A stretch of 64,000 bases of DNA from a virus (IMGVR_UViG_2974753081_000001:72320-136319); one strand, 5' to 3'; counted from the stretch's first letter, positions 24,207 to 53,206 are shown. The notes: generated from the sequence alone by a model not told the origin. A program made the numbers and translations.

Positions 24207-24258
24207 TTGCCATGACCGCTACACATGTGTATATTCAGTGGTGTCAGGGCCGCAGGCC
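24207..24258 (+). promoter_or_regulatory. SigA-type promoter cassette 1
   Basis: TTGCCA-N17-TATATT, TACAC-AT-GTGTA, GGCC-GCA-GGCC hairpin. Confidence 0.85.
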
Positions 24259-24284
24259 GAAGCTCCACACGGAGGACGAACACC

Positions 24285-24533
24285 ATGAGCGACATGACCG
24301 TCGGAGAATTGATCGAACTGCTCCAGCAGTACGACGAGGACGCGACCGTGCGTCTGGCGACCCAGCCGAACTACCCGCTCGAATACCGCCTCGCAGGCGT
24401 TGCCGATGCGGGTCAGGTGGCTGAGGTGCAGGGCGACGAGCCCGACGACGACACTCCGAACGTCGTCTACCTCGCCGAAGGCAGCCAGGTTGGCTACGCC
24501 AGCAAGGCGATCTGGGACGCGGCGGGCTGGTGA
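24285..24533 (+). CDS. Small acidic hypothetical protein
   Basis: MTVGELIELL start, GGAGG RBS after cassette 1. Confidence 0.75.
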   Translation: MSDMTVGELIELLQQYDEDATVRLATQPNYPLEYRLAGVADAGQVAEVQGDEPDDDTPNVVYLAEGSQVGYASKAIWDAAGW

Positions 24534-24838
24534 CCACGATGGCTACCGCGACCAAGCGCCTGCGCTGCGAGGAATGCAACTGTTTCGTCTCCGAGAAGGA
24601 GGCGGAGACCAGCTGGGAGCCCGAGTGGGACGACGACCACGGTCGCCCCATCGGGGCGTGGGTCCGCACGACCCGCTGCAACAACCCGAATTGCCCCGGC
24701 GACGGTGAGGTCTACCTGGGCCTCGCCGAGTACTCCGAGGTGTATGGCTGACGGCCATCTTTGTTCGGAGCCCACATGGGGGATGGGCTCCGTTCATGGA
24801 TCACCGATCCAGCTCGATCCCGACCAGAAGGAAAAATC

Positions 24839-25243
24839 ATGACCGCCACCATCACCGAGGTGTCGCCCCAGACCGTCGCCACCGCGCGTCGGGCTCTGGC
24901 GCTCATCGCCTCCGAACAGCGCCTCATCGGCTACGCCGAGTTCGGCGACCTACTCACCGCGCTCGGCGTCGAGGGAGTGCCCCCGCGCGAGCACTACAGC
25001 CTCCGCAGCCGATACCTCGGCCACGTGCTCGGGGCTGTCGGGCTGGAGAACGGACGGCGCGGTGAGCCACTGCTGACCGCCATCGTTCGCCATGTCGTCA
25101 ACGGCAAGCTGGCCGAGGTCAACCCGAAGGGGTATGCCTGGCCGGTCGAGCAGGTCTACGGCCTGGAGCTGTCCAGCAACTCTGCCGTCGCCCACTCTCA
25201 CCGCGAAGCTGAGCGGTGCCACGCACACCAGTGGGTGCTCTGA
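24839..25243 (+). CDS. Hypothetical protein (paralog of 23738)
   Basis: IA..QRLIGYAEF...LGHVLG.VG.E..RRGEPLLTAIV. Confidence 0.65.
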   Translation: MTATITEVSPQTVATARRALALIASEQRLIGYAEFGDLLTALGVEGVPPREHYSLRSRYLGHVLGAVGLENGRRGEPLLTAIVRHVVNGKLAEVNPKGYAWPVEQVYGLELSSNSAVAHSHREAERCHAHQWVL

Positions 25244-25686
25244 TGGTGGAACTGACCCGAGCCCACGACCTCTCGGCTCGCGATGGTGTTGACGCTGCGG
25301 TCGCTGATGCGATCTCGATGCTGCGGGACGCGAAGAAGGCCATGCGCTCACGCACGCTCGCCGAGCTGATGCGCCTGGAGGAGTCCAGCGCCGAGTTCGG
25401 CACGTTCTCGGTGGTCCGCACTGCCGACCGCAAGGGGTACCGCGACCCGCGCAGCTTCAACGACGAGCGCAGCCCCTACCAGGACGACCAGAAGGTCCTC
25501 ATCACCATCGAGATCGAGGTGGAGGACTGGGACCTGACCGACGGCTTCGTCACTCACGCCGCCGAGCTGGAGCGAACCGAGGAGGCGCTGCAGGCCCAGG
25601 TGGAGATCGCCGAGGCGCAGCGCGTCATCGCCGAACAACAGGAGCGCATCGCACGGCTCGCGAAGAAGGTCGCCCCTGGGCCGTAA
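25243..25686 (+). CDS. Hypothetical coiled-coil protein
   Basis: TGATG-coupled; TAA stop lies inside GTAACG. Confidence 0.65.
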   Translation: MVELTRAHDLSARDGVDAAVADAISMLRDAKKAMRSRTLAELMRLEESSAEFGTFSVVRTADRKGYRDPRSFNDERSPYQDDQKVLITIEIEVEDWDLTDGFVTHAAELERTEEALQAQVEIAEAQRVIAEQQERIARLAKKVAPGP

Positions 25687-25708
25687 CGTTTTCTGACAGA
25701 CCACCGAT
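25683..25708 (+). promoter_or_regulatory. SigD-like promoter
   Basis: GTAACG-N17-GAT(AC) before the ltp-like gene. Confidence 0.7.
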
Positions 25709-25757
25709 ACACCCGACAGCAGTACATCGATCCCGACCAATTCAGGAGAAAAAAATC

Positions 25758-26288
25758 ATGAGCACGAACTACCCGCAGGCCCCCATCCCCGCCACCGAGC
25801 CCAAGCGCAAGAAGCGCAAGTGGCCGTGGGTGCTGGGCATCCTCGCCGTCCTCGGCATCATCATCGCGGTTGCCAGCCCGAAGGAGGCCGAGACCTCCGA
25901 GCCCGCTGCGGCCCCGACCTCGCAGGCCGAGGCCCCGGCCAACGTGCCGACGCCCACTCCGGCTCCGGTCAAGACCGAGGAGGCCGAGTCGTCGGACTCG
26001 CTGTCCAAGGAGCAGAAGAACGCAGTGCGCTCGGCAGAGCAGTACGTCTCGATGACCGGGTTCAGCCGGTCGGGCCTGATCGAACAGCTCAGCTTCGAGG
26101 GCTACTCGACCGAGGACGCTACGGTGGCCGTCGACAGCATGGACATCGACTTCAACGAGATGGCTGCCAAGTCGGCCAAGCAGTACCTGGACATGACCGG
26201 GTTCTCGCGCGATGGTCTCATCGAGCAGCTGACCTTCGAGGGGTACACCCCCGAGCAGGCTGCCTACGGTGCCGACAACGCTGAGTGA
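25758..26288 (+). CDS. Ltp-family membrane-anchored surface protein (superinfection-exclusion-like)
   Basis: N-terminal TM, Pro/Thr linker, two repeats A..SA.QY..MTGFSR.GLIEQL.FEGY. Confidence 0.85.
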   Translation: MSTNYPQAPIPATEPKRKKRKWPWVLGILAVLGIIIAVASPKEAETSEPAAAPTSQAEAPANVPTPTPAPVKTEEAESSDSLSKEQKNAVRSAEQYVSMTGFSRSGLIEQLSFEGYSTEDATVAVDSMDIDFNEMAAKSAKQYLDMTGFSRDGLIEQLTFEGYTPEQAAYGADNAE

Positions 26289-26308
26289 CCTGCTCTGACA
26301 GGTAGTTT

Positions 26309-26341
26309 CGCTCCCGCCCCCAGGGGATGCGGGCGGGGGCG
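26309..26341 (+). terminator. Hairpin terminator
   Basis: CGCTCCCGCCC/GGGCGGGGGCG after the ltp-like gene. Confidence 0.6.
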
Positions 26342-26380
26342 TTACTAGTGCCAGAGAAGTCCCGACCAGAAGGAGACCCC

Positions 26381-26989
26381 GTGCCCGAGACCGACATCTA
26401 CTCCGAGCGCCTGCTCGCCGTATTCAATCTCATCGCCGACCAGCCCCAGGCCCACGACCAGGGGCACTGGGGCACGATCCCGACCTCTGCTGTTCGGCAG
26501 GTGAGGGACGAGATCGAGGAGGTCGACACCACAGATTCGTACTTGGACCGCGCGCTGCCGAACAAGGTCGCCATCGATTGCGGCACGGCGGCGTGCTTTG
26601 CGGGCTGGACCGTGCTGCGCGAGGGCGGCAAGCCGGTGCTGTCGTCTCTGGAAATCTCCGCCAACGCCCGCGTTGATGGCGACGTGATGACTTTCGGCAA
26701 CGTCCTCATGCCCGGCGAGGATGAGCCCAGGTCGGTGGCACAGGTCGCGACGGAGCTGCTGTTCGGCGACCGTGATCGTCGGTGGTTGGCCGACGACCTG
26801 TTCAACGGCTACAACACCCGCTCCATCATCCGGGGCTTGGTGCTCGACCTGCTCAACGGTGTCGATGATGCCCTGATCTCTGAGCGCATCGATGCGGAAG
26901 CCTATGGCGAACAGAAAGGCCCGGACGGCCCGGATGATGAGGCGGTGGAGCCGATTCGCTTCGACGAGTCGCTGGGGGTGTACGTCTGA
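26381..26989 (+). CDS. Hypothetical protein
   Basis: HDQGHW...CGTAACFAGW motif seen in actinophage proteins; CCCGACC and RBS. Confidence 0.7.
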   Translation: MPETDIYSERLLAVFNLIADQPQAHDQGHWGTIPTSAVRQVRDEIEEVDTTDSYLDRALPNKVAIDCGTAACFAGWTVLREGGKPVLSSLEISANARVDGDVMTFGNVLMPGEDEPRSVAQVATELLFGDRDRRWLADDLFNGYNTRSIIRGLVLDLLNGVDDALISERIDAEAYGEQKGPDGPDDEAVEPIRFDESLGVYV

Positions 26990-27462
26990 TGCCGACCAAG
27001 ACCGGTGCTCGACTCACAGCGCAGGATGCGCTCTCGGCCCTCGGCAGCAGCAATGGCTGGGAGGTCCGGGCCGGAGCGTTCAGTGAGCGGCGGCTGTCGT
27101 TCGAGCGTGGCGGCGTCAAGGCCACCATGCTCACCGCTGACTTCCACCCCGGCGGCGCGCTGAAGAACGCCATCCGCTACGAGGGCGGGAAGGTAGTGGC
27201 CGAGCTGCGCAAGGACGACCCCAAGCGTCGCAAGACGTTCGAGGGGTGGTTGCGCGAGAAGCCCGCGTTAACCGATCCGAACAGGTTCAAGGTCGAGCCC
27301 ATCGACCCCGACACCGGGGCCTCGGCAGCCGAGCCCGAGGTCGAGTCGCCAGAGGTCAAGTTCTGCGGCCTGCCGTCGGCGCAGATGGGCTGCGTCCTCT
27401 GCGGAGCCGTCGTTTTCGACATGCGGGCGCACACCGAATGGCATAAGGGGATGGGCCGATGA
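26989..27462 (+). CDS. Hypothetical protein
   Basis: Coupled ORF, C-terminal C..CG...H..WH. Confidence 0.65.
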   Translation: MPTKTGARLTAQDALSALGSSNGWEVRAGAFSERRLSFERGGVKATMLTADFHPGGALKNAIRYEGGKVVAELRKDDPKRRKTFEGWLREKPALTDPNRFKVEPIDPDTGASAAEPEVESPEVKFCGLPSAQMGCVLCGAVVFDMRAHTEWHKGMGR

Positions 27463-28167
27463 TCCAGGTCAAGCCCATCGAGAACGAGATGTGGCAGGTG
27501 ACCAGCAACGGGCGCTGGTGGACCGTCGCGCGTATCCGCACCTTCACGATGGTCGGCTGGCACATCATGAACGAGACCGGTCGGACGATCAGCGCGGACG
27601 GCCAGCTCGGTCGCAAGCTGATCGCGGCGGTCCAGGCAAAGCTGGAGGAGGTCTGATGGCACAGACGAGGCGCGTGTGTGCGCGCTGCGGACGTGAGCGC
27701 GCAGAGAAGCACCTGGAGCGACTGTTCACCGCCCGGCCTTGGGGTCTCACCCAGACCAGGATTCTCCCGACCTCGGTGTGGGTCTGCTATGCCAGGACGT
27801 CGTGCAAGCAGATCGCAAAGGGGGAGCGTCGTGCAGCACGAGTCTGATCCCCAGGACGACATCGACTGGAGCGGCCCCGTCGAGAACATGGAACGCTTCG
27901 CCGAGTACATGCGGAACCAACCGCCGGACCTCCCTCATCTCACTGAGGGTGAATCGTCGCGGCAATGCCTGGATGCGGGCCTGGTGTGCTCCATCGACCC
28001 GCGTACGGGTAAATGCACCGAGTGCGGATGCTATGAGCATCCCGAGGAGAATCACGTCCACTTCGCCTTCGACGCCGCGCGACCCGGCTGGACGACGCCG
28101 ATCTATGACGTCCACGGGCACAAGGTCTCCGACCCGGTGCCGATCGACTCGCTGCCGAGACACGGCG

Positions 28168-28635
28168 ATGAGCGTCCCTGAGTACGCCACCACGGGTGTC
28201 GTGCTGCTGGCCCTGCTCATCGGCATGTACTGCTCGGCAGACCACCTTCGACGCCTGCGGAGGCAGAGCATGGACTGGACCGAGAACGCCCGGCAGCTGA
28301 TCGCGATGGAGGATGCTGCTCTCGCGCGGAGGTGTTCTGAGGAGAACGCACGCTGGCTGGAGGACCCGACCCACTACCTCATGGAGGTCACTGGACTCGA
28401 TGTCGCCAAGGTGCTGTTCGGCTACGTGCAGCGCGAGAAGGTATCTCTGGTCAAGGCACCCCGTCCCCGCCATACGACGGCAGGGTCCCTACCCAATACC
28501 GAGATCGTTCTCCATTTCACCAGGCCCGAGGAACTGGTCTCCCAGATCGTCGCCATGTCGCGCGTGTCGCCGCCGACGGGTGGGCAACTCGCGCGCATCG
28601 TCCGGGAAGTCGAGGACGGTTCCATCGACCTGTAA
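28168..28635 (+). CDS. Membrane-anchored hypothetical protein
   Basis: N-terminal TM; TAA stop inside GTAACG. Confidence 0.6.
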   Translation: MSVPEYATTGVVLLALLIGMYCSADHLRRLRRQSMDWTENARQLIAMEDAALARRCSEENARWLEDPTHYLMEVTGLDVAKVLFGYVQREKVSLVKAPRPRHTTAGSLPNTEIVLHFTRPEELVSQIVAMSRVSPPTGGQLARIVREVEDGSIDL

Positions 28636-28658
28636 CGATCTGCCCCGACCTGAGCGAT
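28632..28658 (+). promoter_or_regulatory. SigD-like promoter (18-nt spacer)
   Basis: GTAACG-N18-GAT(AC); close sequence match to the 9273 site. Confidence 0.65.
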
Positions 28659-28698
28659 ACTCCAATCACCCCGACCAACCCTGTCCTGAGGAGGACCC

Positions 28699-29457
28699 AT
28701 GAGTCACTTTGTCGTCGTCGTCGCACTGCCCGGCCACCTGCTCACCCACGATGAGCTGGACGCGGCCTTGGATGCTGCACTGGCTCCCTACGACGAGAAC
28801 GTCGAGATGCCGCGCTACGTGCGGCACACTCGCGACGAGCTGATTAGGCGAGAGCGCGAGAGCATGGAGCAGATGTTCTCGATCGGATCGGTTGGAAGAT
28901 ACTTGGCCGATCCCGTCGAGTACGCCGAGAAGTACGGCGGCATGAAAGGGCACCTGGCCCACGTCCGCCAGCTCATCGATGAGAAGCCGCTCGACACCTG
29001 GACCGACGAGCAGTGGCACATCAGGGCGCTGCAGAGCTACGAGCCCGACGAGATCGGCCCCGTCGGCGAGGTCTACTCCACCTACAACCCACGCTCGAAG
29101 TGGGACTGGTGGAGTGTCGGTGGCCGCTGGGCGGGGTTCTTCAAGTTCCGCGAAGGCATCGATGAGGCGACCTACGACCGGCTCGGGACCAGGCCGTCGA
29201 TCTTCGACCTGCCCGAGGACATGGACCCGATGGCCACCGACTGCGCGCGCAAGGGCGACCTCACGCGCGAGAGCCTGGACCGCACTCCATATGCCTACGT
29301 GGACCCCGAGCTGGGGTGGATCGAGAAGGGCCAGATGGGGTGGTTCGGGATGTCCTCGGGCGACAAGCCTGAGTCCGAGTGGCAGGAGCAGTACGCCGCG
29401 TGGCTCGGCTCCCTGGACGACAAGACCTGGCTCGTGGCTGTCGACGCACATATCTGA
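28699..29457 (+). CDS. Conserved phage hypothetical protein
   Basis: MSHF.V.V...YNPRSKWDWWSVGGRW...VD.HI family pattern. Confidence 0.8.
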   Translation: MSHFVVVVALPGHLLTHDELDAALDAALAPYDENVEMPRYVRHTRDELIRRERESMEQMFSIGSVGRYLADPVEYAEKYGGMKGHLAHVRQLIDEKPLDTWTDEQWHIRALQSYEPDEIGPVGEVYSTYNPRSKWDWWSVGGRWAGFFKFREGIDEATYDRLGTRPSIFDLPEDMDPMATDCARKGDLTRESLDRTPYAYVDPELGWIEKGQMGWFGMSSGDKPESEWQEQYAAWLGSLDDKTWLVAVDAHI

Positions 29458-29468
29458 GAGGGATCGCC

Positions 29469-31650: not shown

Positions 31651-31676
31651 GTAACGCTCCGGCGGTCTCCGCCGAT
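31651..31676 (+). promoter_or_regulatory. SigD-like promoter
   Basis: GTAACG-N17-GAT(GTAC). Confidence 0.7.
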
Positions 31677-34040: not shown

Positions 34041-34262
34041 GAATCTGACCCAGCAACTGCGCGACCTGAAGGAAGGAGACACCGTCGTCTACCAAGGACG
34101 AGATCACAAGGTGTTCCGCGTCAAGGGCAAGTGGATCGGCCTGATCGACCCGGAGCGCGAGCGCATGTTCTCGACCAACGAGAAGGGTGTCGTCCAGGGG
34201 CCGGTGGCTCACTTCGCGGTGCCGCTGACCGAGGTCGATCTGACTTCGTAGCCCCATCGGGC

Positions 34263-34314
34263 TTGCACCACCCTCTATACGTGTGTATATTGGGTGGTGT
34301 CAGGGGCACAGCCC
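34263..34314 (+). promoter_or_regulatory. SigA-type promoter cassette 2
   Basis: TTGCAC-N17-TATATT, TATAC-GT-GTGTA, GGGC-ACA-GCCC. Confidence 0.85.
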
Positions 34315-34338
34315 ACCAACCTCCACAGAGGAGCCATC

Positions 34339-34620
34339 ATGGCAACCACCATCGTCACCGATCCCACCACCATCGAGCTGCCCGCGCGCGACGCCATCGT
34401 CCGTTCCTACTCCGGCAAGATCGGCTGCGCCTGCGGCTGCCGGGGCAACTACGGCGAGACCTCGCGCTCGAAGGCCATCGTGCTCGGCAAGGTCGAGAAG
34501 CTGCTCCAGTGGTCCCTGGAGGACCCCACGGCTCCCCTGGAGTGGATGGCTTGCTCGCAGTTCATCGCGGTCGACAACCGCGAGACCGGTCGGTCCTACA
34601 CCCTCTACCTGGAGAACTGA
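34339..34620 (+). CDS. Small hypothetical protein (YSGK.GCACGCRG.Y)
   Basis: GAGGAG RBS after cassette 2. Confidence 0.75.
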   Translation: MATTIVTDPTTIELPARDAIVRSYSGKIGCACGCRGNYGETSRSKAIVLGKVEKLLQWSLEDPTAPLEWMACSQFIAVDNRETGRSYTLYLEN

Positions 34621-34662
34621 CGGCCATTGTCGGCATGCTCGAAGCTATGAGCTGACACTGAC

Positions 34663-34714
34663 TTGCACCACACTCTACACGTGTGTATATTCATAGGTGT
34701 TAGGGACGCAGTCC
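34663..34714 (+). promoter_or_regulatory. SigA-type promoter cassette 3
   Basis: TTGCAC-N17-TATATT, TACAC-GT-GTGTA, GGAC-GCA-GTCC. Confidence 0.85.
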
Positions 34715-34739
34715 GCCAACCCCCACGAAGGGACTCATC

Positions 34740-34889
34740 ATGCAGGTCAACGACTACCGCGCCGCAGGAGCCGACGATGTTCGGTTCGCCGCCAAGCGTC
34801 ACCGCCGCAACGGCGAGCACGCCATCGCCGACGCGCTGGAGGCCATCGCCAACCGCATCGCTCGCCAGGAGCTGGAGGAGGCTCGATGA
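34740..34889 (+). CDS. 49-aa hypothetical protein (absent from ORF track)
   Basis: MQVNDYRAAG...ELEEAR* after cassette 3; ATGA-coupled to the next gene. Confidence 0.65.
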   Translation: MQVNDYRAAGADDVRFAAKRHRRNGEHAIADALEAIANRIARQELEEAR

Positions 34890-35226: not shown

Positions 35227-35610
35227 ATGGCTGCCAAGCACGACCCCACCAACCACCCGTTCGAGGTCGGCATGGAGGTGCTGATCGATGACGTGAACCG
35301 TCGCGGTCGCCCGCTCACCGAGGCCGTCGTCTCCAAGGTCGGTCGCAAGCTCGTCTACGCGACCATGTACGGGCGCGACGTCGGGTTCCGCCTGGAAACC
35401 CGCGCGGCCAACGACAACTACGGCCACCAGAGCATCTGGACGCCGGAGGAGGTCGCTGAGCGCGAGCGCCGGGCGTACCTGGACCGTCGGCTCGCAACCT
35501 ACGGCCTGCGCTCAGAGTTCGGAGGCACGAAGTTCCGCGAGCTGCCGACTGAGGTGGTTGAGGAGCTGCTGGAGGTCCTGGACCGGCACGCCGAGCGTGA
35601 TTCGGACTAG
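35227..35610 (+). CDS. Hypothetical protein
   Basis: V.KVGRK..Y pattern, GAGGA RBS. Confidence 0.65.
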   Translation: MAAKHDPTNHPFEVGMEVLIDDVNRRGRPLTEAVVSKVGRKLVYATMYGRDVGFRLETRAANDNYGHQSIWTPEEVAERERRAYLDRRLATYGLRSEFGGTKFRELPTEVVEELLEVLDRHAERDSD

Positions 35611-35693
35611 GACTTATCGCTACACCCATGTATTGTCATTCCTGAAATGGGCACACACACGCCCACCACGCTCGCAGAGGAGAAAAAAAAATC

Positions 35694-36437
35694 ATGACCC
35701 CGACCAAGACCAATGCCCGCACCCGGATGCTCGCGCGCGTCGCCGATCTGGGGTGGGAGCTGGACCCCACCGCGAAGGTGCCTCTGTCGCGCTTCGAACG
35801 TCACGTCCTGGTGCAGAATGAGACCGCGTTCCGCAAGCGCGCCGCTCACGGCGGCTGGTGGAAGATACTGCTCGACTACAGTCAGACCAGCGGGTCCTGG
35901 CGCACGGTTATCGGAACCACACTGCGTGGCATCCAGATCAACTGGACCGAAAACGAGGTTCATTCCGGCAAGGTGATTGGGGTGCTGAAGAATCCCCGAT
36001 CATCTCGATACGGGTCCAGATTTCTGTGGCTTGCCTCTGGCGACCCCAGCGACCCGATGAAGAAGCACGCCGAGACGTTCCTGGCTGATCCTGACCTGGT
36101 CGTGTGGCTCAGTCAGGAGCTGCGGCACAAGGACATCGAGGAGACCCGAGCGCGCCATGCGGAGCAGCGACGCATCGAGAAACTGCGCGAGCAGCTGCTC
36201 CCGGTCAAGGGCCTGACGGAGAATGCGCGGTGGAGGTTCGCCTACGTCTCTCCATTCAAGCGCGCATCCGCCGAGCTGATCAAAGCTGACGGCCTCACCG
36301 ATCTGCCGAAGGTGATGGCCGAGACGTGGAATGAGTTGGAGCGTCTGGTCGAGTACCTGACGCCGGAGGCCCGCGAGGCATTCCAGAAGCACCTGGACGA
36401 CCTGAGCGGCGCTGCCGTGACGGACTTGGACGCCTGA
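35694..36437 (+). CDS. Hypothetical protein
   Basis: 247 aa, GAGGAG RBS. Confidence 0.7.
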   Translation: MTPTKTNARTRMLARVADLGWELDPTAKVPLSRFERHVLVQNETAFRKRAAHGGWWKILLDYSQTSGSWRTVIGTTLRGIQINWTENEVHSGKVIGVLKNPRSSRYGSRFLWLASGDPSDPMKKHAETFLADPDLVVWLSQELRHKDIEETRARHAEQRRIEKLREQLLPVKGLTENARWRFAYVSPFKRASAELIKADGLTDLPKVMAETWNELERLVEYLTPEAREAFQKHLDDLSGAAVTDLDA

Positions 36438-39478: not shown

Positions 39479-39479
39479 A

Positions 39480-40830: not shown

Positions 40831-41088
40831 CGACGGTTTTTCGGTGACTTACCTCGGTAACGGGGGTGTCCGCGTCACGCACACCCCCACCGGGGAATCG
40901 CGCGAGTCGTCGCGGCACCCGGTGATGACCATGAACTTCGATGCTGCCTGGGAGGAGCTGAGGATGGAGCTGCAGACGAGGCCAGAGTCGTGATCCGCGC
41001 GCTGAAGGTGTTCGCGGTGGCCGTCGGCATCGAGACCGCCCTCGGCCTTGCGTGCTGCGTTCTGCTGGTCTACCTCATGGAGTAGGAC

Positions 41089-41140
41089 TTGCACGCACGT
41101 CTACACATGTGTATATTCGTAGGTGTAAGGGCCACAGGCC
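41089..41140 (+). promoter_or_regulatory. SigA-type promoter cassette 4
   Basis: TTGCAC-N17-TATATT, TACAC-AT-GTGTA, GGCC-ACA-GGCC. Confidence 0.85.
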
Positions 41141-41164
41141 ACCAAATCCCCAGGAGGAGCCACC

Positions 41165-41845
41165 ATGACCACCACCGCCACCGTCCGCCCCATCGCCGGA
41201 GTCGACGCCAAGGACGGCCAGATCGGCTATGTCGAGGTCCTGCTCGCCGAGCGCAACTGGGCTGAGGCCACCCCCGCCACCTACGCGATGCGCGCTGGCG
41301 AGATCGCTGCCGCCATCCAGATCGTTCGCAACCCGGAGCTGGCTGCCAAGGCCGGTGCCACCGCTCCGTTCGACGGCGGCAAGCTCAACCAGGTGCTCCA
41401 CTTCGCCAACTCCAAGCCGCTGACCATCAAGGGCGCGAGCGCGCTGATCGACTGGCTGAAGACGGTGGAGCGCAAGGCCGCTCCGGCTCGCACCGCTCAC
41501 ACCCGTCCGGCCACCGCACTCCCCGAGGTCCCCGCCGGACGCTATGCCGTCGCCACCGACAAGGGCGCGATCAACGAGATCGCCTTCTACGTGGTCGACC
41601 GCCCGGAGACCGGCAAGTGGGCGGGCTACACCTTCGTCAAGCGCCTGGAGAGCGACACCGAGGTTCGCCTCGGTCGCGCGCAGGCCGCGACGGTGCTCGC
41701 CAAGATCGCCGCCGATCCCGCTGCTGCCAGCAAGCTCTACGGCCACGAGATCGGTGCCTGCGGCGTCTGCGGTCGCACCCTCACGAATGACGCCAGCCGC
41801 GAGGCCGGTATCGGTCCGAAGTGCCAGGCCAAGGCTGGCTGGTGA
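41165..41845 (+). CDS. DUF6011-domain zinc-binding protein
   Basis: C-terminal CGVCGRTLT...SREAGIGPKC. Confidence 0.8.
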   Translation: MTTTATVRPIAGVDAKDGQIGYVEVLLAERNWAEATPATYAMRAGEIAAAIQIVRNPELAAKAGATAPFDGGKLNQVLHFANSKPLTIKGASALIDWLKTVERKAAPARTAHTRPATALPEVPAGRYAVATDKGAINEIAFYVVDRPETGKWAGYTFVKRLESDTEVRLGRAQAATVLAKIAADPAAASKLYGHEIGACGVCGRTLTNDASREAGIGPKCQAKAGW

Positions 41846-41849
41846 CACC

Positions 41850-41878
41850 GAGGGACGGGGGCTCCGGCCCCCGCCCTC
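41850..41878 (+). terminator. Hairpin terminator
   Basis: GAGGG-A-CGGGGGC-TCCG-GCCCCCG-CCCTC. Confidence 0.65.
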
Positions 41879-42296
41879 TGACCCCAGGAGATGATCATGA
41901 ACGAGGTGTGGGCGGTCACCGAGTCCGGCTGCCCCGAGGAGTGCTGCAATTACGTGAGCGGGACCACCGTGGTGGCCCTGTTCGACAACAAACAGGCCGC
42001 TGACCAGCTAGCTGACCGCAAGGGCTACGGGTTCTACTCCCAGCGCCTGCGCGTCTACCACGCCCCCAGGGACGTGCCGGAGTACCTCCGCACGTGACGA
42101 GAAGGAGAACCTGAAGATGATGATCGAATGCCGTGTCCGCGCTGATGTGGACATCAAGAAGTGGGCCGAGCTGTACGACACCGACGGCCAAAAGATCTCT
42201 GAGGTCCGCAAGGACATCCGCACCTGGATGCGCGAGACGGTGATCGACGCGATGGAGGACGAGGGCTTGCTGCTGCTCGACCCCGACGGCAAGCCG

Positions 42297-46014: not shown

Positions 46015-46331
46015 CGACGACTTCGAAACCGTGGGACGGCTGCTCGCCAATGTTCGGGAGATGGTCGCGGGGCTCGGTCGCCCCGGCCACGACCGCCCCT
46101 TCGTCTCGCTGATGCTGCGCGAGGACGACGGCGTCACGCTGCAGGTGCTCCGCCTAGACCCGGACCAGTTCCCCGAGTTCCGCCACCCGCGCTCACCGGT
46201 CCGGGTGTCGCACATCCGCGACGAGGATGGCTCTGTTGTCGTGGTGCTCGCGTGCAAGCGCGGCGAGCTGCTCGACGTGCTGCAGACCACGCTCGCCTAT
46301 CTGCTGCTCCGCCCCGAGGACCGGGAGGGAC

Positions 46332-46382
46332 TTGCTAGCTGATCTATACGTGTGTATATTGAGTGGTGTTAGAGGCACAGCC
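46332..46382 (+). promoter_or_regulatory. SigA-type promoter cassette 5
   Basis: TTGCTA-N17-TATATT, TATAC-GT-GTGTA, GGC-ACA-GCC. Confidence 0.8.
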
Positions 46383-46406
46383 CACACCCTCACCGAGGAG
46401 ATCGAC

Positions 46407-46562
46407 ATGTACGCACCCGCACCCACCGCCCGCGAGGCCGCATGGGACGCCGCGATGGACATCCACGACACCGTGAGCGAGGACGGCCACACCTGCGGCT
46501 GCGGCCAGGATGTCGCCGAGTGCCAGTTCGATCTCAGCCACCTGGAGGACCCCGAGGACTGA
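46407..46562 (+). CDS. Small acidic Cys-containing protein
   Basis: GAGGAG RBS after cassette 5. Confidence 0.65.
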   Translation: MYAPAPTAREAAWDAAMDIHDTVSEDGHTCGCGQDVAECQFDLSHLEDPED

Positions 46563-47331: not shown

Positions 47332-47345
47332 GATACGATGGCCGC

Positions 47346-48104
47346 ATGGCCGAACTGAAGTGGCTAGGGCCACCCGGCAGCGGCAACTCCGCAGAGGTCA
47401 TCACCCGCGACGACGTCACTGCCAAGAAGGGCACCGCGATGTCGGCTGCCCAGATCGACGCCCAGATCAGTGCCGCGCTCACCGGCTACTCACTGAAGAC
47501 CTACGTCGACTCGCAGGACTCGCCCAAGGCGCTGCTGTCGTATGTGAACTCGCGCGACGCGACCAAGCTCACTCGCGAAATGCGCGGTGCTCCGAACGGC
47601 GCTCTGCCCCTGGACGCCAGCGGCATGATCCCCAAGGCGTACCTGAACAACAACTACCCCGCCTTCAACAAGGCGGTCCGGGGCTACTACTCCCCGGCGA
47701 GCTACGTCTCGACCAACTGGACCTCGCTCACCACTCAGAACGCCCAGAAGCTCTGCGCCGACATCACCATCCCCGACCCCGGCTATCCGTACCTGATCAT
47801 CCCGTATGGCTACTGGGAGTGTCAGGTCAACTCGGCCTCGGGCGACAACACCTACCCGGAGATCAACGTCCGCGTCGGCACGCGCGTGATCGGTCGCGGC
47901 GTGGGCGCGCTCAACATCATCGAGCCGCACAACTGCACCATCGGCCCCTACGACACCGTCGGCACGCCATTCACCGGCACCCAGACGGTGACCTGCCACG
48001 GCGGGCGCTGGAGGCCGTCTGGCTCCAACACCACGTCCATCAGCATCTTCGGGGCATCGACGGCCACCCCGCCCAAGCTGATCCTGTTCCTGGCTGCCGC
48101 GTGA
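47346..48104 (+). CDS. Fibre / minor structural protein paralog A
   Basis: KTYVDSQD, GAPNGALPLDASGMIP fibre-type motifs. Confidence 0.65.
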   Translation: MAELKWLGPPGSGNSAEVITRDDVTAKKGTAMSAAQIDAQISAALTGYSLKTYVDSQDSPKALLSYVNSRDATKLTREMRGAPNGALPLDASGMIPKAYLNNNYPAFNKAVRGYYSPASYVSTNWTSLTTQNAQKLCADITIPDPGYPYLIIPYGYWECQVNSASGDNTYPEINVRVGTRVIGRGVGALNIIEPHNCTIGPYDTVGTPFTGTQTVTCHGGRWRPSGSNTTSISIFGASTATPPKLILFLAAA

Positions 48105-48111
48105 GGTCGAC

Positions 48112-48855
48112 ATGGCGAAGCTGAAGAACGTCGGCGCGTACCCGAACACCGAGGACTCGCTCGGGCGCACCGACTTCATGAACACGACGTTCTCCGACCG
48201 AGGCGTGGTGCCCGCCGACGTCACCGCTGCGATGGATCAGGCCAAGGCCCCGCTCGCGCTGAAGACCTACATCGACGCCCAGGACGCGCTGTACACCACC
48301 AAGAGCTACGCCGACACCCAGGACAACCTGCTCATCGATGCCAGCCAGCTCGGGGCGTCCAACGGCATCGCCCAGCTCGGAGCCAACAGCAAGGTCACCG
48401 CGTCGGCTCTGCCACTGGCCGCAACCGTCCGGTCGCACAACTTCACCTACGGCACGATCAAGACGGTCTCCAGCGCGGGCGTCTACTGCACCAGCTTCAC
48501 CGTCCCCAACCCAGGGTTCCGGTGGCAGCCGCTGTGGTCGGGGTGGACGATGTCGCGCTACTACGCCTCGCCCTACTGCTTTCCGGGCGTCTCGATCCGC
48601 GACAGCACCGGCAAGTGGGTGGCCCGAGGCTACGGATCGGGGCGCAACCTCAACGAGTGGTATCCCACCCCAATCACCAACACCCGCTATGAGACCGCTC
48701 CGCCGATCTGGTACGACGGCTCGGAGACGTTCGATCTGTACTACACCCGCGAGTACGGCACCGGGCAGGTTCAGGTCGGCCACCTGTACTCGTGGTTCCA
48801 GTGCATGGTCGTCGCCGCAGCCAGCTCCACCACATCGCCGGTCGTCATCACGTAG
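48112..48855 (+). CDS. Fibre / minor structural protein paralog B
   Basis: KTYIDAQD, KSYADTQD, GASNGIAQLGANSKV. Confidence 0.65.
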   Translation: MAKLKNVGAYPNTEDSLGRTDFMNTTFSDRGVVPADVTAAMDQAKAPLALKTYIDAQDALYTTKSYADTQDNLLIDASQLGASNGIAQLGANSKVTASALPLAATVRSHNFTYGTIKTVSSAGVYCTSFTVPNPGFRWQPLWSGWTMSRYYASPYCFPGVSIRDSTGKWVARGYGSGRNLNEWYPTPITNTRYETAPPIWYDGSETFDLYYTREYGTGQVQVGHLYSWFQCMVVAAASSTTSPVVIT

Positions 48856-48865
48856 GAGGACATCC

Positions 48866-49636
48866 ATGCCCGCTCTCCGTAGCGTCGGCCCCGTCCCGGT
48901 CTCGGGCAACGGTCTGGTCACCCGTGGCACCGCCGACGCCATGCTCACCGGCATGGTGGGACATGACGTTCTCGCCTCGAAGGTGGATGCCGCTGTCGCG
49001 CCGTATGCGCAGAAGTCCTACGTCGACACCCAGGACGGCTTGCTCGCGACCAAGGCCCAGGTGGACGCTGGGGACGCGCTGCTGATGCCGACCAGCTGGA
49101 AGAACGCCGCCAACGGCGTCTGCGGTCTCTCCGGCACCGACCTGCCGACCGCCAGGGTTCCTCGGGTTCCGGTGCTGCCCACCATCTTCCAGCGGTCCTG
49201 GTACTACAACGACTTCACCCCGCTCGCCGCCAACGTCGGTGCTGAGGGTGAGATTGTCATCCTGAATGCTTCGATGCAGCTGCCCTCGAATGATCCGAGC
49301 GTCTACTACCGATTCATGTGTTTTGGCAACTTCGAGGGGTGGGCGCTCTCCGGCTCTGCCCCCTACAACAACCTCAGCGGCAAGCCGGTTTTCCGCGTGT
49401 ATGTCAACGGCTACCTGTGCGGATACGGAGCGGGGCGCAATGGCGCGGGCTCGGCAGCTCCGTCTCCAGTGCCGGTGACCCCGGTCGCCGACAACCTCGG
49501 GCACGTGCCGGGTACCGGATGGACGAACAGCACCGCGACGGTGCGCGTCACCATCGCCTCGGCGTTTGCGAGCACGATGGTCAAGTACGACCCGACGCCG
49601 CAGACGCTGCTGACGATCATCGTCGTATCTGCGTAG
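48866..49636 (+). CDS. Fibre / minor structural protein paralog C
   Basis: KSYVDTQD, NAANGVCGL; AGGAGG RBS. Confidence 0.65.
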   Translation: MPALRSVGPVPVSGNGLVTRGTADAMLTGMVGHDVLASKVDAAVAPYAQKSYVDTQDGLLATKAQVDAGDALLMPTSWKNAANGVCGLSGTDLPTARVPRVPVLPTIFQRSWYYNDFTPLAANVGAEGEIVILNASMQLPSNDPSVYYRFMCFGNFEGWALSGSAPYNNLSGKPVFRVYVNGYLCGYGAGRNGAGSAAPSPVPVTPVADNLGHVPGTGWTNSTATVRVTIASAFASTMVKYDPTPQTLLTIIVVSA

Positions 49637-49639
49637 GGC

Positions 49640-49691
49640 TTGCACTAAACGCTACACGTGTGTATATTCGTAGGTGTTAGGGACGCAGTCC
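49640..49691 (+). promoter_or_regulatory. SigA-type promoter cassette 6
   Basis: TTGCAC-N17-TATATT, TACAC-GT-GTGTA, GGAC-GCA-GTCC. Confidence 0.85.
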
Positions 49692-49715
49692 ACCACCCCC
49701 ACGAAGGGACCTCCG

Positions 49716-50651
49716 ATGACCACCACCGCTACCCGCAAGCACACCCGCAAGCCGATGTCGGCTGCCAAGCGCGAGCAGGCCGCTGCCGCCCGCAAGGAGC
49801 AGGCCGAGGCGCTGCAGGCCGGACTCGCCGCCCAGGTCGCCGAGATGGCTTCGGGTGCCGCGTGGCGCGACTACCTGGACTTCGCGGGCAACTTCCACCG
49901 CTACTCGCTGCGGAACACGCTGCTCATCATGGTTCAGCACCCCACCGCCACCTCGGTCGCCGGATACAAGGCGTGGCAGGAGCGCGGTCGCCAGGTCATC
50001 AAGGGCGAGAAGGCCATCCGCATCTATGGCTTCGCTCAGAAGAAGGTCGAGGACGAGGTGACCAAGGAGGTCACCTACCAGACCTACTTCCCCATCGTCT
50101 CGGTGTTCGCCGAGGACCAGACCGCGCCGATTACCGACGACATGATCGCCGACATCCGCAAGGCCAACCCGAAGGCGATCACGTTCGCCGAGGCTCCGGT
50201 CAACCCGACCCAACGCCTGCAGGGCACCGATGACACCGACATCCTCGGGCGCGTCGCGGCGTTCGTGGAGGGCAACGGCTGGGAGTTCGCCATCGAGGCC
50301 GTCGGCGGCGGAGCCAACGGGTTCACCACCATCGACGGCACCAAGCGCGTCGTGGTCGAGGCCAACCTGGCTCCGGCGCAGCAGGCCAAGACCGCGCTGC
50401 ACGAGGCCGCGCACATGATCCTCCACACCGACGAGGAGGGCATGGTTCTGGACCGCGCCACCAAGGAGCTGGAGGCCGAGAGCGCCAGCTACGTCGCCTC
50501 CAAGATGCTCGGCCTGGACTCCGAGGGCTACAGCATCGGGTACCTCACCGGCTGGAGCCAGGGCAACCCCGACGCGGTGAAGGCGACCGCCGAGCGGGTC
50601 CTGAAGGCCGCGCACCGGATCATCGAGGCGTTGGACCCCACCGACGACTGA
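49716..50651 (+). CDS. ArdC-like ssDNA-binding antirestriction protein with zincin-like domain
   Basis: FHRYSLRNTLLI.Q.PTAT.VAGYKAW..RGRQV.KGEKAI; HEAAH...ELEAES..Y. Confidence 0.85.
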   Translation: MTTTATRKHTRKPMSAAKREQAAAARKEQAEALQAGLAAQVAEMASGAAWRDYLDFAGNFHRYSLRNTLLIMVQHPTATSVAGYKAWQERGRQVIKGEKAIRIYGFAQKKVEDEVTKEVTYQTYFPIVSVFAEDQTAPITDDMIADIRKANPKAITFAEAPVNPTQRLQGTDDTDILGRVAAFVEGNGWEFAIEAVGGGANGFTTIDGTKRVVVEANLAPAQQAKTALHEAAHMILHTDEEGMVLDRATKELEAESASYVASKMLGLDSEGYSIGYLTGWSQGNPDAVKATAERVLKAAHRIIEALDPTDD

Positions 50652-50668
50652 CCGACCCGGCGGGGGCT

Positions 50669-50694
50669 GTAACGAATCGGCCCCCGCCACCGAT
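50669..50694 (+). promoter_or_regulatory. SigD-like promoter overlapping a hairpin
   Basis: GTAACG-N17-GAT; the -35 sits in the loop of GGCGGGGGC/GCCCCCGCC. Confidence 0.7.
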
Positions 50695-50723
50695 CACCCA
50701 CCACCCCGACCAAGGAGAAAATC

Positions 50724-51203
50724 ATGGACTTCGCCACCGCACTCACCCTGTCGATCAACGAGGAGTGGGGTCGTCACGTCGCGGCCAACGAACGACTGGG
50801 CGGACTGCCGTCGACACCGCGCGACGTGTTCGCTCTCACCTGCGCCAATTTCATCATCGCCGCGCGCGTCCATTCCATGTGCGAGTTTCCCGACGACACC
50901 ACCTACGGCACGTTCTACAACTGCCGCGAGTACGGCGTGACCTACCATCGGCGCGGCTGGACGTTCGCGCTCTACGAGCACCGCAACTCCGACCAGATCA
51001 TTCTCAACGGCTGCCCCGACCCCGAGGTGCAGAGCTACGGGCCGTATGGCGACGTGGACGACAAGCACAACTACTTCGTTGCGCTCGGCCCCGAGGACTA
51101 CTGGCCCGCTGCGGACGCACTGAAGCAGGCGCTGTCCGTTGCGAGCCCCGCCCTGACTCGGCAGGAGATGAAGGACCTGTTCGACTCGGACTTCGCACGC
51201 TAG
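50724..51203 (+). CDS. Hypothetical protein
   Basis: N.RE.G...EHRNSD pattern; SigD-like site and CCCGACC upstream. Confidence 0.7.
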   Translation: MDFATALTLSINEEWGRHVAANERLGGLPSTPRDVFALTCANFIIAARVHSMCEFPDDTTYGTFYNCREYGVTYHRRGWTFALYEHRNSDQIILNGCPDPEVQSYGPYGDVDDKHNYFVALGPEDYWPAADALKQALSVASPALTRQEMKDLFDSDFAR

Positions 51204-51558
51204 GCTCCCAACACCCCCGACCGAAAGGCTGTCCCGATGATCACTCCCACCCCTGGCAACAAGGTCCTGGAATCGCCGGACGGCGTGCCCTACGACCGCG
51301 TCCTGCATGCGTTCCTGGACACCCGGCACGTGGCCGTCGACTCCGAGGGCAAACCCGTGGGTCCAACCATGGGCGACCCGTTCGACCGCTGCATGATCCC
51401 CGTCGCGGTCTCAATGGACGTCTGCGACCACTCGACGGCGATCTGCAACGGCTGCCTGCAGGAGTGGGCCATCGACTACGACTTCGCCGAGCTGACCGTA
51501 TCCTGACGGGGACCGGGGGCTGCTGGAAATAAAAATCCGGCAACCCCCGGCTTTGGAC

Positions 51559-51619
51559 TTGCATCATTCCCTACACGTGTGTATATTTAGTGGTGTCAGG
51601 AAGACCAAGGCCGCAGGCC
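51559..51619 (+). promoter_or_regulatory. SigA-type promoter cassette 7
   Basis: TTGCAT-N17-TATATT; 59 bp (51571-51629) identical to cassette 9. Confidence 0.85.
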
Positions 51620-51642
51620 ACCAACACCCCACGGAGGACAAC

Positions 51643-51984
51643 ATGTACACCACCCCCAACACCGCAGCCGCCACCTTCCAGGTCGGACAGGTCCTGGCCG
51701 AGCCTCTGGTCACCGACACCATCACCTACGAGGTCGTCAAGACCACCGCCCACACCGTCACCGTCCGCCGGACCCAGGACGGCGGCGAGCCGATCCGGGA
51801 CCTCAAGGTCGACCAGGGTGACTACCCGGTCCTCTGGACCCCTCAGGTCCCCTGCCCCGAAGCGCCCGCCAAGACCCTCCGCATCCGCAAGGACGGAAGC
51901 ATCCGCTTCGGCGGCGGCTACAAGCTCCGCCCCGCAGCCACGATCGAAGGCCAGCCCGTCCGGCGCGTCGATTACCGGTTCTAG
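51643..51984 (+). CDS. Hypothetical protein
   Basis: GGAGG RBS after cassette 7. Confidence 0.75.
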   Translation: MYTTPNTAAATFQVGQVLAEPLVTDTITYEVVKTTAHTVTVRRTQDGGEPIRDLKVDQGDYPVLWTPQVPCPEAPAKTLRIRKDGSIRFGGGYKLRPAATIEGQPVRRVDYRF

Positions 51985-51990
51985 TCCGAG

Positions 51991-52014
51991 GAGCGGGGGC
52001 TTCGGCCCCCGCTC
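51991..52014 (+). terminator. Intrinsic terminator
   Basis: GAGCGGGGGC-TTCG-GCCCCCGCTC followed by TCTT. Confidence 0.8.
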
Positions 52015-52042
52015 TCTTCGGCTCCTACGGGCTCTCCCCGAC

Positions 52043-52094
52043 TTGCATCTGACGCTACACGTGTGTATATTCGTAGTTGTAAGGGCCACCGGCC
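52043..52094 (+). promoter_or_regulatory. SigA-type promoter cassette 8
   Basis: TTGCAT-N17-TATATT, GGCC-ACC-GGCC. Confidence 0.85.
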
Positions 52095-52119
52095 ACCAAG
52101 CCTCACAGAGGAGATTCCG

Positions 52120-52392
52120 ATGAACGACATGATGCACCGCCCCGAGGTTTCCTTCCCGCTTCGCGCGATCGGCAAGGGCGAGTACGAGGGCACCAAGGTC
52201 ATCAACGGCACCAAGGTCGTCATGAACGCCGACAAGTCGATGTGGGCCGAGAACACCTGGAGCCTGCACGTCTGGACCGTCAAGGCCGACGAGGACGGTT
52301 ACGAGCGATACACCCTCATCCACAAGAGCACCGAGTGGAGCCTGAAGGACTGCCGGATGCAGGCCAAGATGATCGCCACCTACGAAATCTGA
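52120..52392 (+). CDS. Hypothetical protein
   Basis: GAGGAG RBS after cassette 8. Confidence 0.7.
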   Translation: MNDMMHRPEVSFPLRAIGKGEYEGTKVINGTKVVMNADKSMWAENTWSLHVWTVKADEDGYERYTLIHKSTEWSLKDCRMQAKMIATYEI

Positions 52393-52424
52393 TCCCCACC
52401 CCGGCCAACTGATCCCACCAAGGG

Positions 52425-52446
52425 GGCGGGGGCTTCGGCCCCCGCC
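52425..52446 (+). terminator. Hairpin terminator
   Basis: GGCGGGGGC-TTCG-GCCCCCGCC. Confidence 0.75.
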
Positions 52447-52473
52447 ATCCCCATTCCCAGAACGGAACCCGCC

Positions 52474-52788
52474 ATGAACCCCGCCCAGATCGCTGCCTAC
52501 CGCGCCGCTGCTCTCGCCGATTTCTCCGACCGTGACCTGCTCAACGAACTGCTCTCGCGCGTCGGACAGCGCGTAGCTCAGCTCCCGGAAGTTCGGGTCG
52601 GCGAGATCGACGTGGACGTGAACGACGCGATGATGGAAGCCGCCATCGACCTGGCTGCCGAGATGGGTGTCGACGCAGACGACGTCGCGCGCCCGGACCC
52701 CAAGCCGGAGATGGACATCGTCGTCTCGGCGGCGGAGCTGTTCTACGGCCTCTCGGCGCTGGCGGGCTTCGACATCGTCACCATCTAG
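52474..52788 (+). CDS. Hypothetical protein
   Basis: 104-aa acidic ORF. Confidence 0.6.
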   Translation: MNPAQIAAYRAAALADFSDRDLLNELLSRVGQRVAQLPEVRVGEIDVDVNDAMMEAAIDLAAEMGVDADDVARPDPKPEMDIVVSAAELFYGLSALAGFDIVTI

Positions 52789-52791
52789 GAC

Positions 52792-52852
52792 TTGCGCTGC
52801 GCGCTACACGTGTGTATATTTAGTGGTGTCAGGAAGACCAAGGCCGCAGGCC
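52792..52852 (+). promoter_or_regulatory. SigA-type promoter cassette 9
   Basis: TTGCGC-N17-TATATT, GGCC-GCA-GGCC. Confidence 0.85.
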
Positions 52853-52875
52853 ACCAACACCCTCAGGGAGTCACC

Positions 52876-53139
52876 ATGAACGCCATCGACATTCAGACCG
52901 TCACGATTGTTCGAGAGGGCGAAGAGATCGTGAAGGTCTTCGCCGGAGCCCACCGGGTCCGCGCTGTAGCCGAGAAGATGTTCCCCGAGAGCGTCCAGCA
53001 GACGTGGGAGACCCTGGCCGACCCCACGGTCGTCACCCATTGCATCGAGTCCAGGTACTTCGTCATCCGAGGCATCGACCATCGCGGCGACTACGAACGC
53101 TTGTTCCGCGTCAGCCACGAGCCGGTCGAGACCTTCTGA
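52876..53139 (+). CDS. Hypothetical protein
   Basis: GGAG RBS after cassette 9; starts MNAIDIQT. Confidence 0.7.
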   Translation: MNAIDIQTVTIVREGEEIVKVFAGAHRVRAVAEKMFPESVQQTWETLADPTVVTHCIESRYFVIRGIDHRGDYERLFRVSHEPVETF

Positions 53140-53154
53140 GTCACCAGCTAGGAC

Positions 53155-53206
53155 TTGCACTAAACGCTACACCTGTGTATATTTAGTGGTGTCAGGGACG
53201 CAGTCC
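53155..53206 (+). promoter_or_regulatory. SigA-type promoter cassette 10
   Basis: TTGCAC-N17-TATATT, TACAC-CT-GTGTA, GGAC-GCA-GTCC. Confidence 0.85.

Follow-up and report, generated by a model that had tools for sequence, protein, structure and literature searches.

Repeated promoter, dyad and leader units in the small-gene array of an actinophage genome, and their coincidence with gene turnover

The final 64 kb of a 136,319 bp virus record from IMG/VR (IMGVR_UViG_2974753081_000001:72320-136319; this stretch of 64,000 nucleotides is termed 'the window' here, and positions are counted from its first letter unless they are marked as genome positions) carry ten copies of a repeated unit, each consisting of a promoter, an operator-like dyad and a short leader, and each placed ahead of a different open reading frame (ORF). 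It is probable, in our judgement, that these units are composite expression cassettes of ~85 bp that double as portable junctions for gene turnover.

The pattern TTGCNN-N17-TATATT-N4-GKTGT matches at exactly ten positions in the window (copies c1 to c10, Table 1), all on the plus strand and all between genes, and at none in 100 dinucleotide-preserving shuffles (expected by chance, 0). These are the ten sites listed in an original prediction made from the same DNA, and five of them are indeed packed into 49.6-53.2 kb. The 17-nt core CTAYACNTGTGTATATT recovers those ten sites only, even at two mismatches. Three further copies, all decayed, emerge when the complete 136-kb record is scanned with a weight matrix: a heavily decayed one at 35608, and two outside the window, at genome 25677 (-35 box gone, dyad centre TG, upstream of a structural-region gene) and at genome 57843 (TTGACT-16-TATAGT, dyad centre AC, hairpin intact). 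Each unit extends over ~85 bp from the upstream stop codon, which falls 0-4 nt before the -35 box in c1, c4, c5, c6, c9 and c10 and often reads TAG-GAC, to the next start codon. The CA-rich leader, ribosome-binding site and unrelated ORF that had been predicted behind each copy were all found, the ATG lying 76-88 nt past each site and preceded by a GGAG-type sequence. About half of the units answer to the description 'one small gene each'; c1, c3 and c5 head several genes.

When the copies are aligned, three blocks prove invariant: G(G/A)C-TTGC in the -35 region, CTA(C/T)AC-N-TGTGTATATT, and G(G/T)TGT, behind which stand a small hairpin, a CA-rich stretch and the GGAG-type ribosome-binding site. 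The blocks of 6-8 nt after the -35 box and of 4 nt after the -10 box are free and saturated with changes, so the copies are presumably old, and the conserved blocks held by selection. Individual copies look like patchworks, in a manner that had been partly anticipated: c7 and c9 have an exact common run of 59 bp, c6 and c10 agree at 12 of 12 nt from the -35 box onward and again in the leader while differing at five clustered positions in the middle, and the genes behind c9 and c10 resemble one another in their first eight codons.

The promoter boxes, TTGCAC-17 nt-TATATT, are present in all ten copies, and both the hexamers and the exact 17-nt spacing fit a group-1 (SigA/sigma-70-type) promoter. 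The promoter spacer is filled by a 12-bp dyad, TACAC-NN-GTGTA, which overlaps the -10 box. Its halves are constant across the 13 copies (apart from a left half of TATAC in c2 and c5), and its centre may be GT, AT, CT, TG or AC; constant halves about a free centre are the pattern expected of a site that is read by a protein dimer. As RNA, the same dyad could form only 5 bp around a 2-nt loop, and thus no useful hairpin. An NrdR box, a Crp site and an extended -10 element (TGn) were considered for the conserved core and set aside, since the sequence does not seem to fit their consensus sites. Cluster A stoperators are asymmetric sites of 13-14 bp, oriented with transcription, found at the promoters and in the operons of temperate phages and bound by the immunity repressor. 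They too were rejected as a model, the present dyad being symmetric and confined to promoter spacers, and the nearest named relative, Rhodococcus phage Finch, being predicted to be lytic (PMC13313380); the search for integrase and repressor genes was not exhaustive.

The leader that follows the promoter appears to be structured. RNAalifold returns a stem of 4 bp with a 3-nt loop. At its third pair, six copies have C:G, four have A:U and two have G:C, and the pair is broken in none; its covariation score was reached by 0 of 500 shuffles, and shifted registers collapse. In the minimum-energy fold of every copy, the conserved GGUG(U) pairs with a downstream (A)CACC or ACC around this hairpin. Were transcription to start at the GG, 5-6 nt past TATATT (a distance that is usual in actinobacteria), the message would begin with a two-tier stem-loop. 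Conserved structured RNA elements behind early promoters, namely the nut sites of lambda and the put sites of HK022, make polymerase terminator-resistant; here too a conserved hairpin stands behind every promoter with GC hairpins downstream, albeit one far smaller than put. Neither a boxA-like element nor an N-like protein was identified here, in an analysis that did not search the Rfam library. A 127-aa protein with a Phage_ProQ_C_like domain (35227-35610, E 4e-23; its Finch counterpart is 33% identical) is a candidate RNA-binding protein for the leader hairpins.

Relatives suitable for a comparison of gene content proved to be scarce. A megablast search of 49-54 kb against GenBank phages gave no match, the exact core motif found merely nine single chance matches in IMG/VR, and a motif scan of species genomes found one chance match, in a bin of 38% GC. 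IMG/VR searches for related loci with the ArdC-like protein, the 1149-aa virion protein and a methylase alignment yielded no close relative, and with the DUF6011 protein distant phages only. A methylase relative, P0002, is 84% identical and is encoded by 11 contigs, the longest of 36 kb; further relatives, P0003-P0006, stand at 56-59%. The scan of metagenome contigs for the dyad, -10 box and GGTGT returned five chance matches and one true relative, termed L047, a 12.3-kb contig from ENA (64% G+C) that is syntenic with 44.1-57.2 kb at 70-89% nucleotide identity. Among sequencing runs, only four wastewater metagenomes have contigs with small shares of the stretch, and no RNA run was among those listed.

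L047 has four copies of the unit, one of them decayed. Behind three of the four shared promoters (those like c5, c7 and c8) the immediately following genes are unrelated to those of the present phage, with ORFs of 47, 56 and 45 aa in place of 51, 113 and 90 aa, while the distal genes are kept: the 73-aa ORF, the tail-like paralogues, the ArdC-like gene, the 89-aa ORF, the methylase and beyond. It is without c9, c10 and four genes (those from 52120 to 53472), and a 45%-identical paralogue of the 159-aa gene stands behind its c7-like promoter, not behind the ArdC-like gene. Pairwise alignment further reveals a block of ~97% identity, comprising the 89-aa gene (51237-51506), a hairpin and the c7 promoter, in surroundings of ~80%; similarity ends inside the c7 leader, and the block looks like a recent exchange with one end in a unit. 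Of the 159-aa gene (50724-51203), L047 keeps only the last ~25 nt, the rest having been removed by a deletion with one end within the gene; the units are thus not used in every event.

The second comparison is provided by a wastewater contig of 390 nt that differs at three positions in 301 nt (99% identity), with 17 of its letters unaccounted for. It joins 52791 to 53473. The 681 bp that it lacks begin at the initial T of the -35 box of c9 and end with the final base of the c10 gene's stop codon, so that what has been gained or lost is [promoter-leader-ORF] twice over. A comparison of cassette content between relatives, as the original prediction had asked for, therefore finds differences by whole units or by the genes behind them. 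Both comparisons place indels or replacements at units, with one other indel (that of the 159-aa gene) away from them, in a sample of two. The proposal of a 'recombinable array' is thus borne out to the extent that two natural relatives differ with break points at or inside units; recombination between copies was not observed, the joints listed from these low-depth metagenome contigs including no c7xc9 or c6xc10 joint and no circle.

The most serious alternative is that the units are ordinary conserved phage promoters and nothing besides, the turnover around them being general actinophage mosaicism in which they take no part. This is a real possibility, although on balance we doubt it. The whole 46-kb array differs from Finch irrespective of proximity to a unit, the loss of the 159-aa gene ends away from any unit, the right end of the 681-bp indel is without a repeat, and the repeats of Cluster O phages are not involved in rearrangements (PMC4351075). 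To be set against these points are the replacement of three out of four promoter-proximal genes in L047 while distal genes stay, the end of the 97% block within the c7 leader, the beginning of the 681-bp indel at the very first base of a -35 box, and the patchwork among the copies themselves, each of which speaks for involvement of the units.

The genes behind the units are frequently accompanied by GC-rich hairpins. Four of the form GGGGGC-N-GCCCCC occur in the window (41857, 50662, 51995 and 52428; 0.32 expected), following the first genes of c4, c6, c7 and c8; a further GC hairpin stands behind the first c10 gene. A strong GC hairpin just upstream is found only at c7 and c8. The earlier description of these as terminators that end the units agrees with their position behind first genes, yet they mostly lack T-runs and a terminator function is for that reason not assured. 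A scan for canonical terminators (a stem plus a T-run) was uninformative in this GC-rich DNA. A second class of putative promoter, GTAACR-N15-17-CGAT, has 13 sites on the plus strand and none on the minus strand (12 in the window between 9273 and 50669, and one at genome 61501), with boxes that are extracytoplasmic function (ECF)/SigD-like. Several of these sites lie directly behind GC hairpins, and many units would accordingly consist of a SigA-type promoter with its first gene, a hairpin, and then a second-class promoter ahead of further genes. A leader word, CCGACCAAGGAG, has seven plus-strand copies just ahead of start codons, mostly behind GTAACG-type promoters (8098, 13513, 31691, 36943, 42350 and 50706; genome 58264).

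How a unit might work can be pictured as follows. The TTGCAC-17 nt-TATATT promoter would be usable by unaided host RNA polymerase, and since that polymerase should suffice, the units would probably be switched on first. The dyad would most likely be the seat of a dimeric repressor, of phage or host origin, able to shut all units together. Pairing of the GGTGT start with the downstream ACC or CACC around the 4-bp hairpin would give the message a 5' stem-loop, most likely one that protects or marks it, and the CA-rich leader with its strong Shine-Dalgarno site would complete the unit. The first gene would often be closed by a GC hairpin, and the genes behind it often re-started from a GTAACG-N16-CGAT promoter. 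Because the same 60-85 bp recur in 10-13 copies and in one orientation, the units would also act as portable junctions, with relatives coming to differ in entire [promoter-leader-ORF] units or in which ORF a shared promoter heads. We infer repressor binding at the dyad, a role for the 5' stem-loop, and recombination at the units from sequence.

Several observations weigh against this picture. The -35 box agrees with TTGACA at just three of six positions; SigA dependence and early timing are suggested by the boxes, and the start site, timing and strength of these promoters are all predictions. Pfam searches of ~60 proteins encoded at 24.3-56.6 kb, with PHROGs searched as well, found no helix-turn-helix protein and consequently no candidate binder for the dyad. 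Support for the hairpin comes from a single covarying pair, and the two-tier stem-loop has to be put conditionally because leader fold energies are unexceptional (no better than shuffles, with z from -2.6 to +0.3) and the outer stem is without covariation. Among the cargo, ThyX and the tail-like paralogues would be atypical as immediate-early genes. The 681-bp indel, having no repeat at its right end, is not a simple copy-by-copy crossover, and break points at promoters are partly to be expected, because promoters are the only conserved intergenic DNA.

A possible older history of the leader is suggested by Finch, which has no copy of the motif within two mismatches and no comparable AT-rich repeated word, and which has 16 GTAACR-N16-CGAT sites on the plus strand and none on the minus strand. 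At ten of the 16, GGTG(T)NA(G)G stands 4-6 nt further on, and in several of these a long stem begins with GGTG; in the present genome GGTG follows just one of the 13 second-class sites. The Finch leader, GGTGT-AGG ... CCACGGAGGAC-ACCATG, stands behind GTAACG-N16-CGATATAC promoters, and at one orthologous pair of genes (the 405-aa ORF at genome 25753-26970 and Finch gp27) the ECF-type unit of Finch aligns with the decayed unit at genome 25677. The units of the two phages are alike in the distance from -35 box to GGTGT (33 versus 34 nt), in an ATAT core in the -10 region, in the GGTGT-N-AGG start with 5' stems from GGTG, and in a CCACG-R-AGGAG..CACC-ATG(A) ribosome-site context; they differ in that Finch has ECF-type GTAACG and CGAT boxes instead of TTGCAC and TATATT, and is without the TACAC-NN-GTGTA dyad. 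Tentatively, then, the leader cassette may be older than the split of the two phages, one subfamily having changed promoter class and gained the dyad. A fuller version, in which the leader outlived the change of promoter class, host SigA boxes and a private dyad were refitted to it, and the result serves both as a regulon switch (one repressor for a whole set of accessory genes) and as a set of cross-over points for loading new genes, would make the units an actinophage equivalent of the gene shuffling at the stem-loop cassettes of T4-type phages; it seems to us rather unlikely as a whole. In Finch itself, the 5' end of gp27 as annotated (start 22823) takes in an entire unit (L048:22816-22895), from a GTAACG-N16-CGAT promoter and GGTGT leader to a ribosome-binding site and an ATG, and the true start of the gene is probably near 22890; a near-identical unit precedes Finch gp201.

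The Finch comparison also bears on the idea that the units need a phage factor, or the factor of the GTAACG-N16-CGAT class, in place of unmodified host SigA, and are middle or late promoters. It draws on the alignable Finch leader behind GTAACG-N16 promoters, including that upstream of the gp27 ortholog pair, on the copy without a -35 box that precedes the 405-aa structural-region gene, and on the three phrog_1446 'minor tail' paralogues in the c5 operon. We nonetheless regard it as improbable: the hexamers and the 17-nt spacing fit a group-1 sigma factor, with no AAC or CGT-type ECF boxes; both promoter classes coexist in this genome with different leaders, as the single GGTG among the 13 ECF-type sites attests; and no phage sigma factor was found, in that Finch gp84, an RNA polymerase sigma factor by annotation, has no homologue anywhere in the 136-kb record and the Sigma70_r4_2 matches are all sub-threshold. 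At the position that corresponds to gp84, the present genome has an ORF (5596-6284) that appears HNH/NUMOD4-like by eye. A role of the core outside transcription, as a replication, packaging or partition site in the DNA, is very improbable, as is the reading of the unit as a small mobile element: the dyad is strictly conserved and its core is an alternating pyrimidine-purine run, as such a site might have, but all copies are oriented with their genes at a constant distance to the ribosome-binding site and ATG, the -35 and -10 boxes are optimally spaced, there are neither terminal inverted repeats nor target duplications, and no copy was present in other genomes scanned except the close relative L047.

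Units that join a promoter to a mobile gene neighbourhood have been described before. The early-promoter/stem-loop elements ('PeSLs') of T4-type phages (RB49/phi1, T4/PST and KVP40/nt-1) are repeated units of a sigma-70 promoter and a stem-loop terminator (PMC2839356, PMC4122927), which reach from the stop codon of the preceding gene as far as the Shine-Dalgarno site and ATG of the next, sit in hyperplastic regions, and mediate indels, replacements and mini-circles (PMC2839356). The present units resemble them in the span of the repeat (~70-85 bp, with a sigma-70-type promoter and a Shine-Dalgarno site set between an upstream stop and the next start codon), in their concentration among hyperplastic small genes of no known function, in the indels and replacements found at units between relatives (here in two comparisons, with one further indel away from any unit), and in that a few PeSLs in core modules accompany inserted ORFans; here, the genome 57843 copy precedes four small genes that are absent from Finch and lie between the positions of Finch's tail gene and helicase. 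They differ in having no sequence relationship to PeSLs and in belonging to a high-GC actinophage that is not T4-type. The stem-loop of a PeSL is a strong terminator within the unit, whereas the present repeat has a 12-bp operator-like dyad and a small leader hairpin, its GC hairpins are separate and lie after the first gene, and it has no AT-rich upstream element. Mini-circles and promoter strength, moreover, have been measured for PeSLs, the present units being known from sequence alone. The label 'PeSL-like' fits as regards promoter, dyad and leader repeats in a hyperplastic array with some turnover at the units; it does not fit as regards the defining terminator stem-loop, which is not in the repeat for most copies (the leader hairpin has only 4 bp, and the dyad could give no more than 5 bp around 2 nt).

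Closer in host range are repeats of other actinophages. Gordonia phage Vardy (cluster DJ) has five copies of a 50-bp motif with TATAAT (PMC9671010), and Gordonia phage CaiB (cluster DR) has repeats ahead of six genes (PMC9302106). Both are phages of mycolata in which, as here, an intergenic motif that includes a -10 box recurs ahead of unrelated genes within the non-structural arm; their motifs are shorter and come from genome announcements only, with no dyad, covarying hairpin or comparison of gene content reported. Cluster O mycobacteriophages have 8-9 SigA-like promoters and more than 30 copies of a 17-bp dyad, TGTTCGG-NNN-CCGAACA (PMC4351075). They too are apparently lytic actinophages with strong SigA-type promoters and an invariant dyad of free centre that is predicted to bind a dimeric protein. 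Their dyads, however, lie mostly off promoters and are unlinked to rearrangements (PMC4351075), whereas the present dyad is found in promoter spacers only and its units coincide with turnover.

The record from which the window is taken has 65% G+C, with nearly every gene on the plus strand, and encodes a baseplate-J protein, a DUF7297 virion protein, DnaB and a DNA polymerase III alpha subunit. Its 1065-aa lysin (60190-63387) combines an Rv2525c-like glycosidase, an amidase_2 (amidase), an M23 peptidase and a DUF4185 domain, a set that points to a mycolic-acid-bearing host, and the source genome appears to be that of a lytic-looking myovirus. Finch is the nearest named phage (71% aa identity for the DUF7297 protein and 56% for the 1149-aa virion protein), with Cluster C mycobacteriophages next. 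A tblastn comparison of all gene calls with Finch shows conserved structural and replication modules and almost no homologues in a small-gene array of ~46 kb (9.6-56 kb); all ten units lie inside this hyperplastic array, at 24-53 kb.

Most genes immediately behind the promoters are small orphans (49-113 aa), with two exceptions, the DUF6011 protein and a 311-aa protein with ArdC-N and M78 peptidase domains, which is the first gene of c6 and confirms that the array includes an ArdC-like gene. Further genes, behind units or inner second-class promoters, encode an Ltp-type lipoprotein, two DUF732 proteins, a HIT protein, the ProQ C-terminal-like protein, a PNKP-type phosphatase, ThyX and three tandem phrog_1446 'minor tail' paralogues; the remaining cargo proteins are without a family. 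Such a cargo fits an accessory, mostly early-type region, yet not a purely anti-defence one: the proposal of host-takeover or anti-defence cassettes is matched by the ArdC-like and Ltp-like proteins only, and not by ThyX, the HIT protein, the PNKP phosphatase, the ProQ-like protein or the three 'minor tail' paralogues. The Ltp protein (25758-26288, 176 aa) has two Lipoprotein_Ltp repeats (E 5e-29), the family to which the TP-J34 superinfection-exclusion lipoprotein belongs. The phrog_1446 ('minor tail protein') paralogues (47439-49636; 221, 247 and 256 aa) stand in tandem within the small-gene array; in Finch, by contrast, the corresponding genes (gp224-226) are flanked by those for the large virion protein and the endolysin.

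If the units are immediate-early promoters, the ten promoter-proximal ORFs (49-311 aa) would form a short, ranked list of the first proteins made; as only the ArdC-like ORF has a predicted function and one more falls in DUF6011, they would be natural candidates for anti-defence and host-takeover screens. The dyad, in turn, would define a one-site regulon, and the units offer compact, strong-looking promoter-leader parts for the genetics of mycolata. Judging from the two relatives, new genes may enter the genome immediately behind a promoter that is already in place, which would help to explain the turnover of orphan arrays of the Bxz1/Finch type.

Table 1. Repeat units, associated hairpins and related features in the window
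Feature	Position	Strand	Remark
c1: promoter, dyad, leader, ATG of 82-aa ORF	24203..24287	+	heads ~4 genes up to 25686
c2	34259..34341	+	heads single 93-aa ORF (phrog_5930), then c3
c3	34659..34742	+	heads ORFs of 49, 109 and 127 aa (last with ProQ C-terminal-like domain)
decayed copy TAGGACTT..CTACACCCATGTATTGT, -35 box lost	35608..35696	+	precedes 247-aa ORF
c4	41085..41167	+	heads 226-aa DUF6011 protein
GC hairpin (GGGGGCTCCGGCCCCC core)	41846..41880	+	closes first gene of c4
c5, -35 box overlaps upstream stop	46328..46409	+	ORFs of 51, 73 and 173 aa, then three phrog_1446 paralogues
c6	49636..49718	+	heads ArdC-like gene
ArdC-N + M78/IrrE-peptidase protein, 311 aa	49716..50651	+	first gene of c6
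GC hairpin after ArdC-like gene	50659..50688	+	loop contains GTAACG box of a GTAACG-N16-CGAT promoter
GC hairpin directly upstream of c7	51511..51550	+	
c7, leader ~9-10 nt longer, like c9	51555..51645	+	heads single 113-aa ORF
GC hairpin GGGGGCTTCGGCCCCC	51990..52015	+	after c7 gene, upstream of c8
c8	52039..52122	+	90-aa ORF, hairpin 52419-52446, then 104-aa ORF
c9	52788..52878	+	heads single 87-aa ORF
c10	53151..53232	+	80-aa ORF; its first 8 codons resemble those of c9 gene
GC hairpin after c10 gene	53482..53502	+	9-12 nt inside right break points of both relatives (53473, 53485)
681-bp block: c9, its gene, c10, its gene	52792..53472	+	absent from 99%-identical wastewater contig

A third repeated motif, GTAGTGTTAACAC, is a 10-bp perfect palindrome, GTGTTAACAC, and occurs at 12757, 53845 and 63955 and at genome 2182 (minus strand), 9211 and 61086. 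Its copies occupy gaps ahead of the methylase gene, of the genes at genome 9594 and 61128, of a small gene at 12985 and, across the ends of the record, of the record's first gene. The motif is possibly a third promoter or a regulator site; it is retained at the same place in L047, and GTTAACAC stands at similar places in Finch (2127, 54707, 100118 and 138826).

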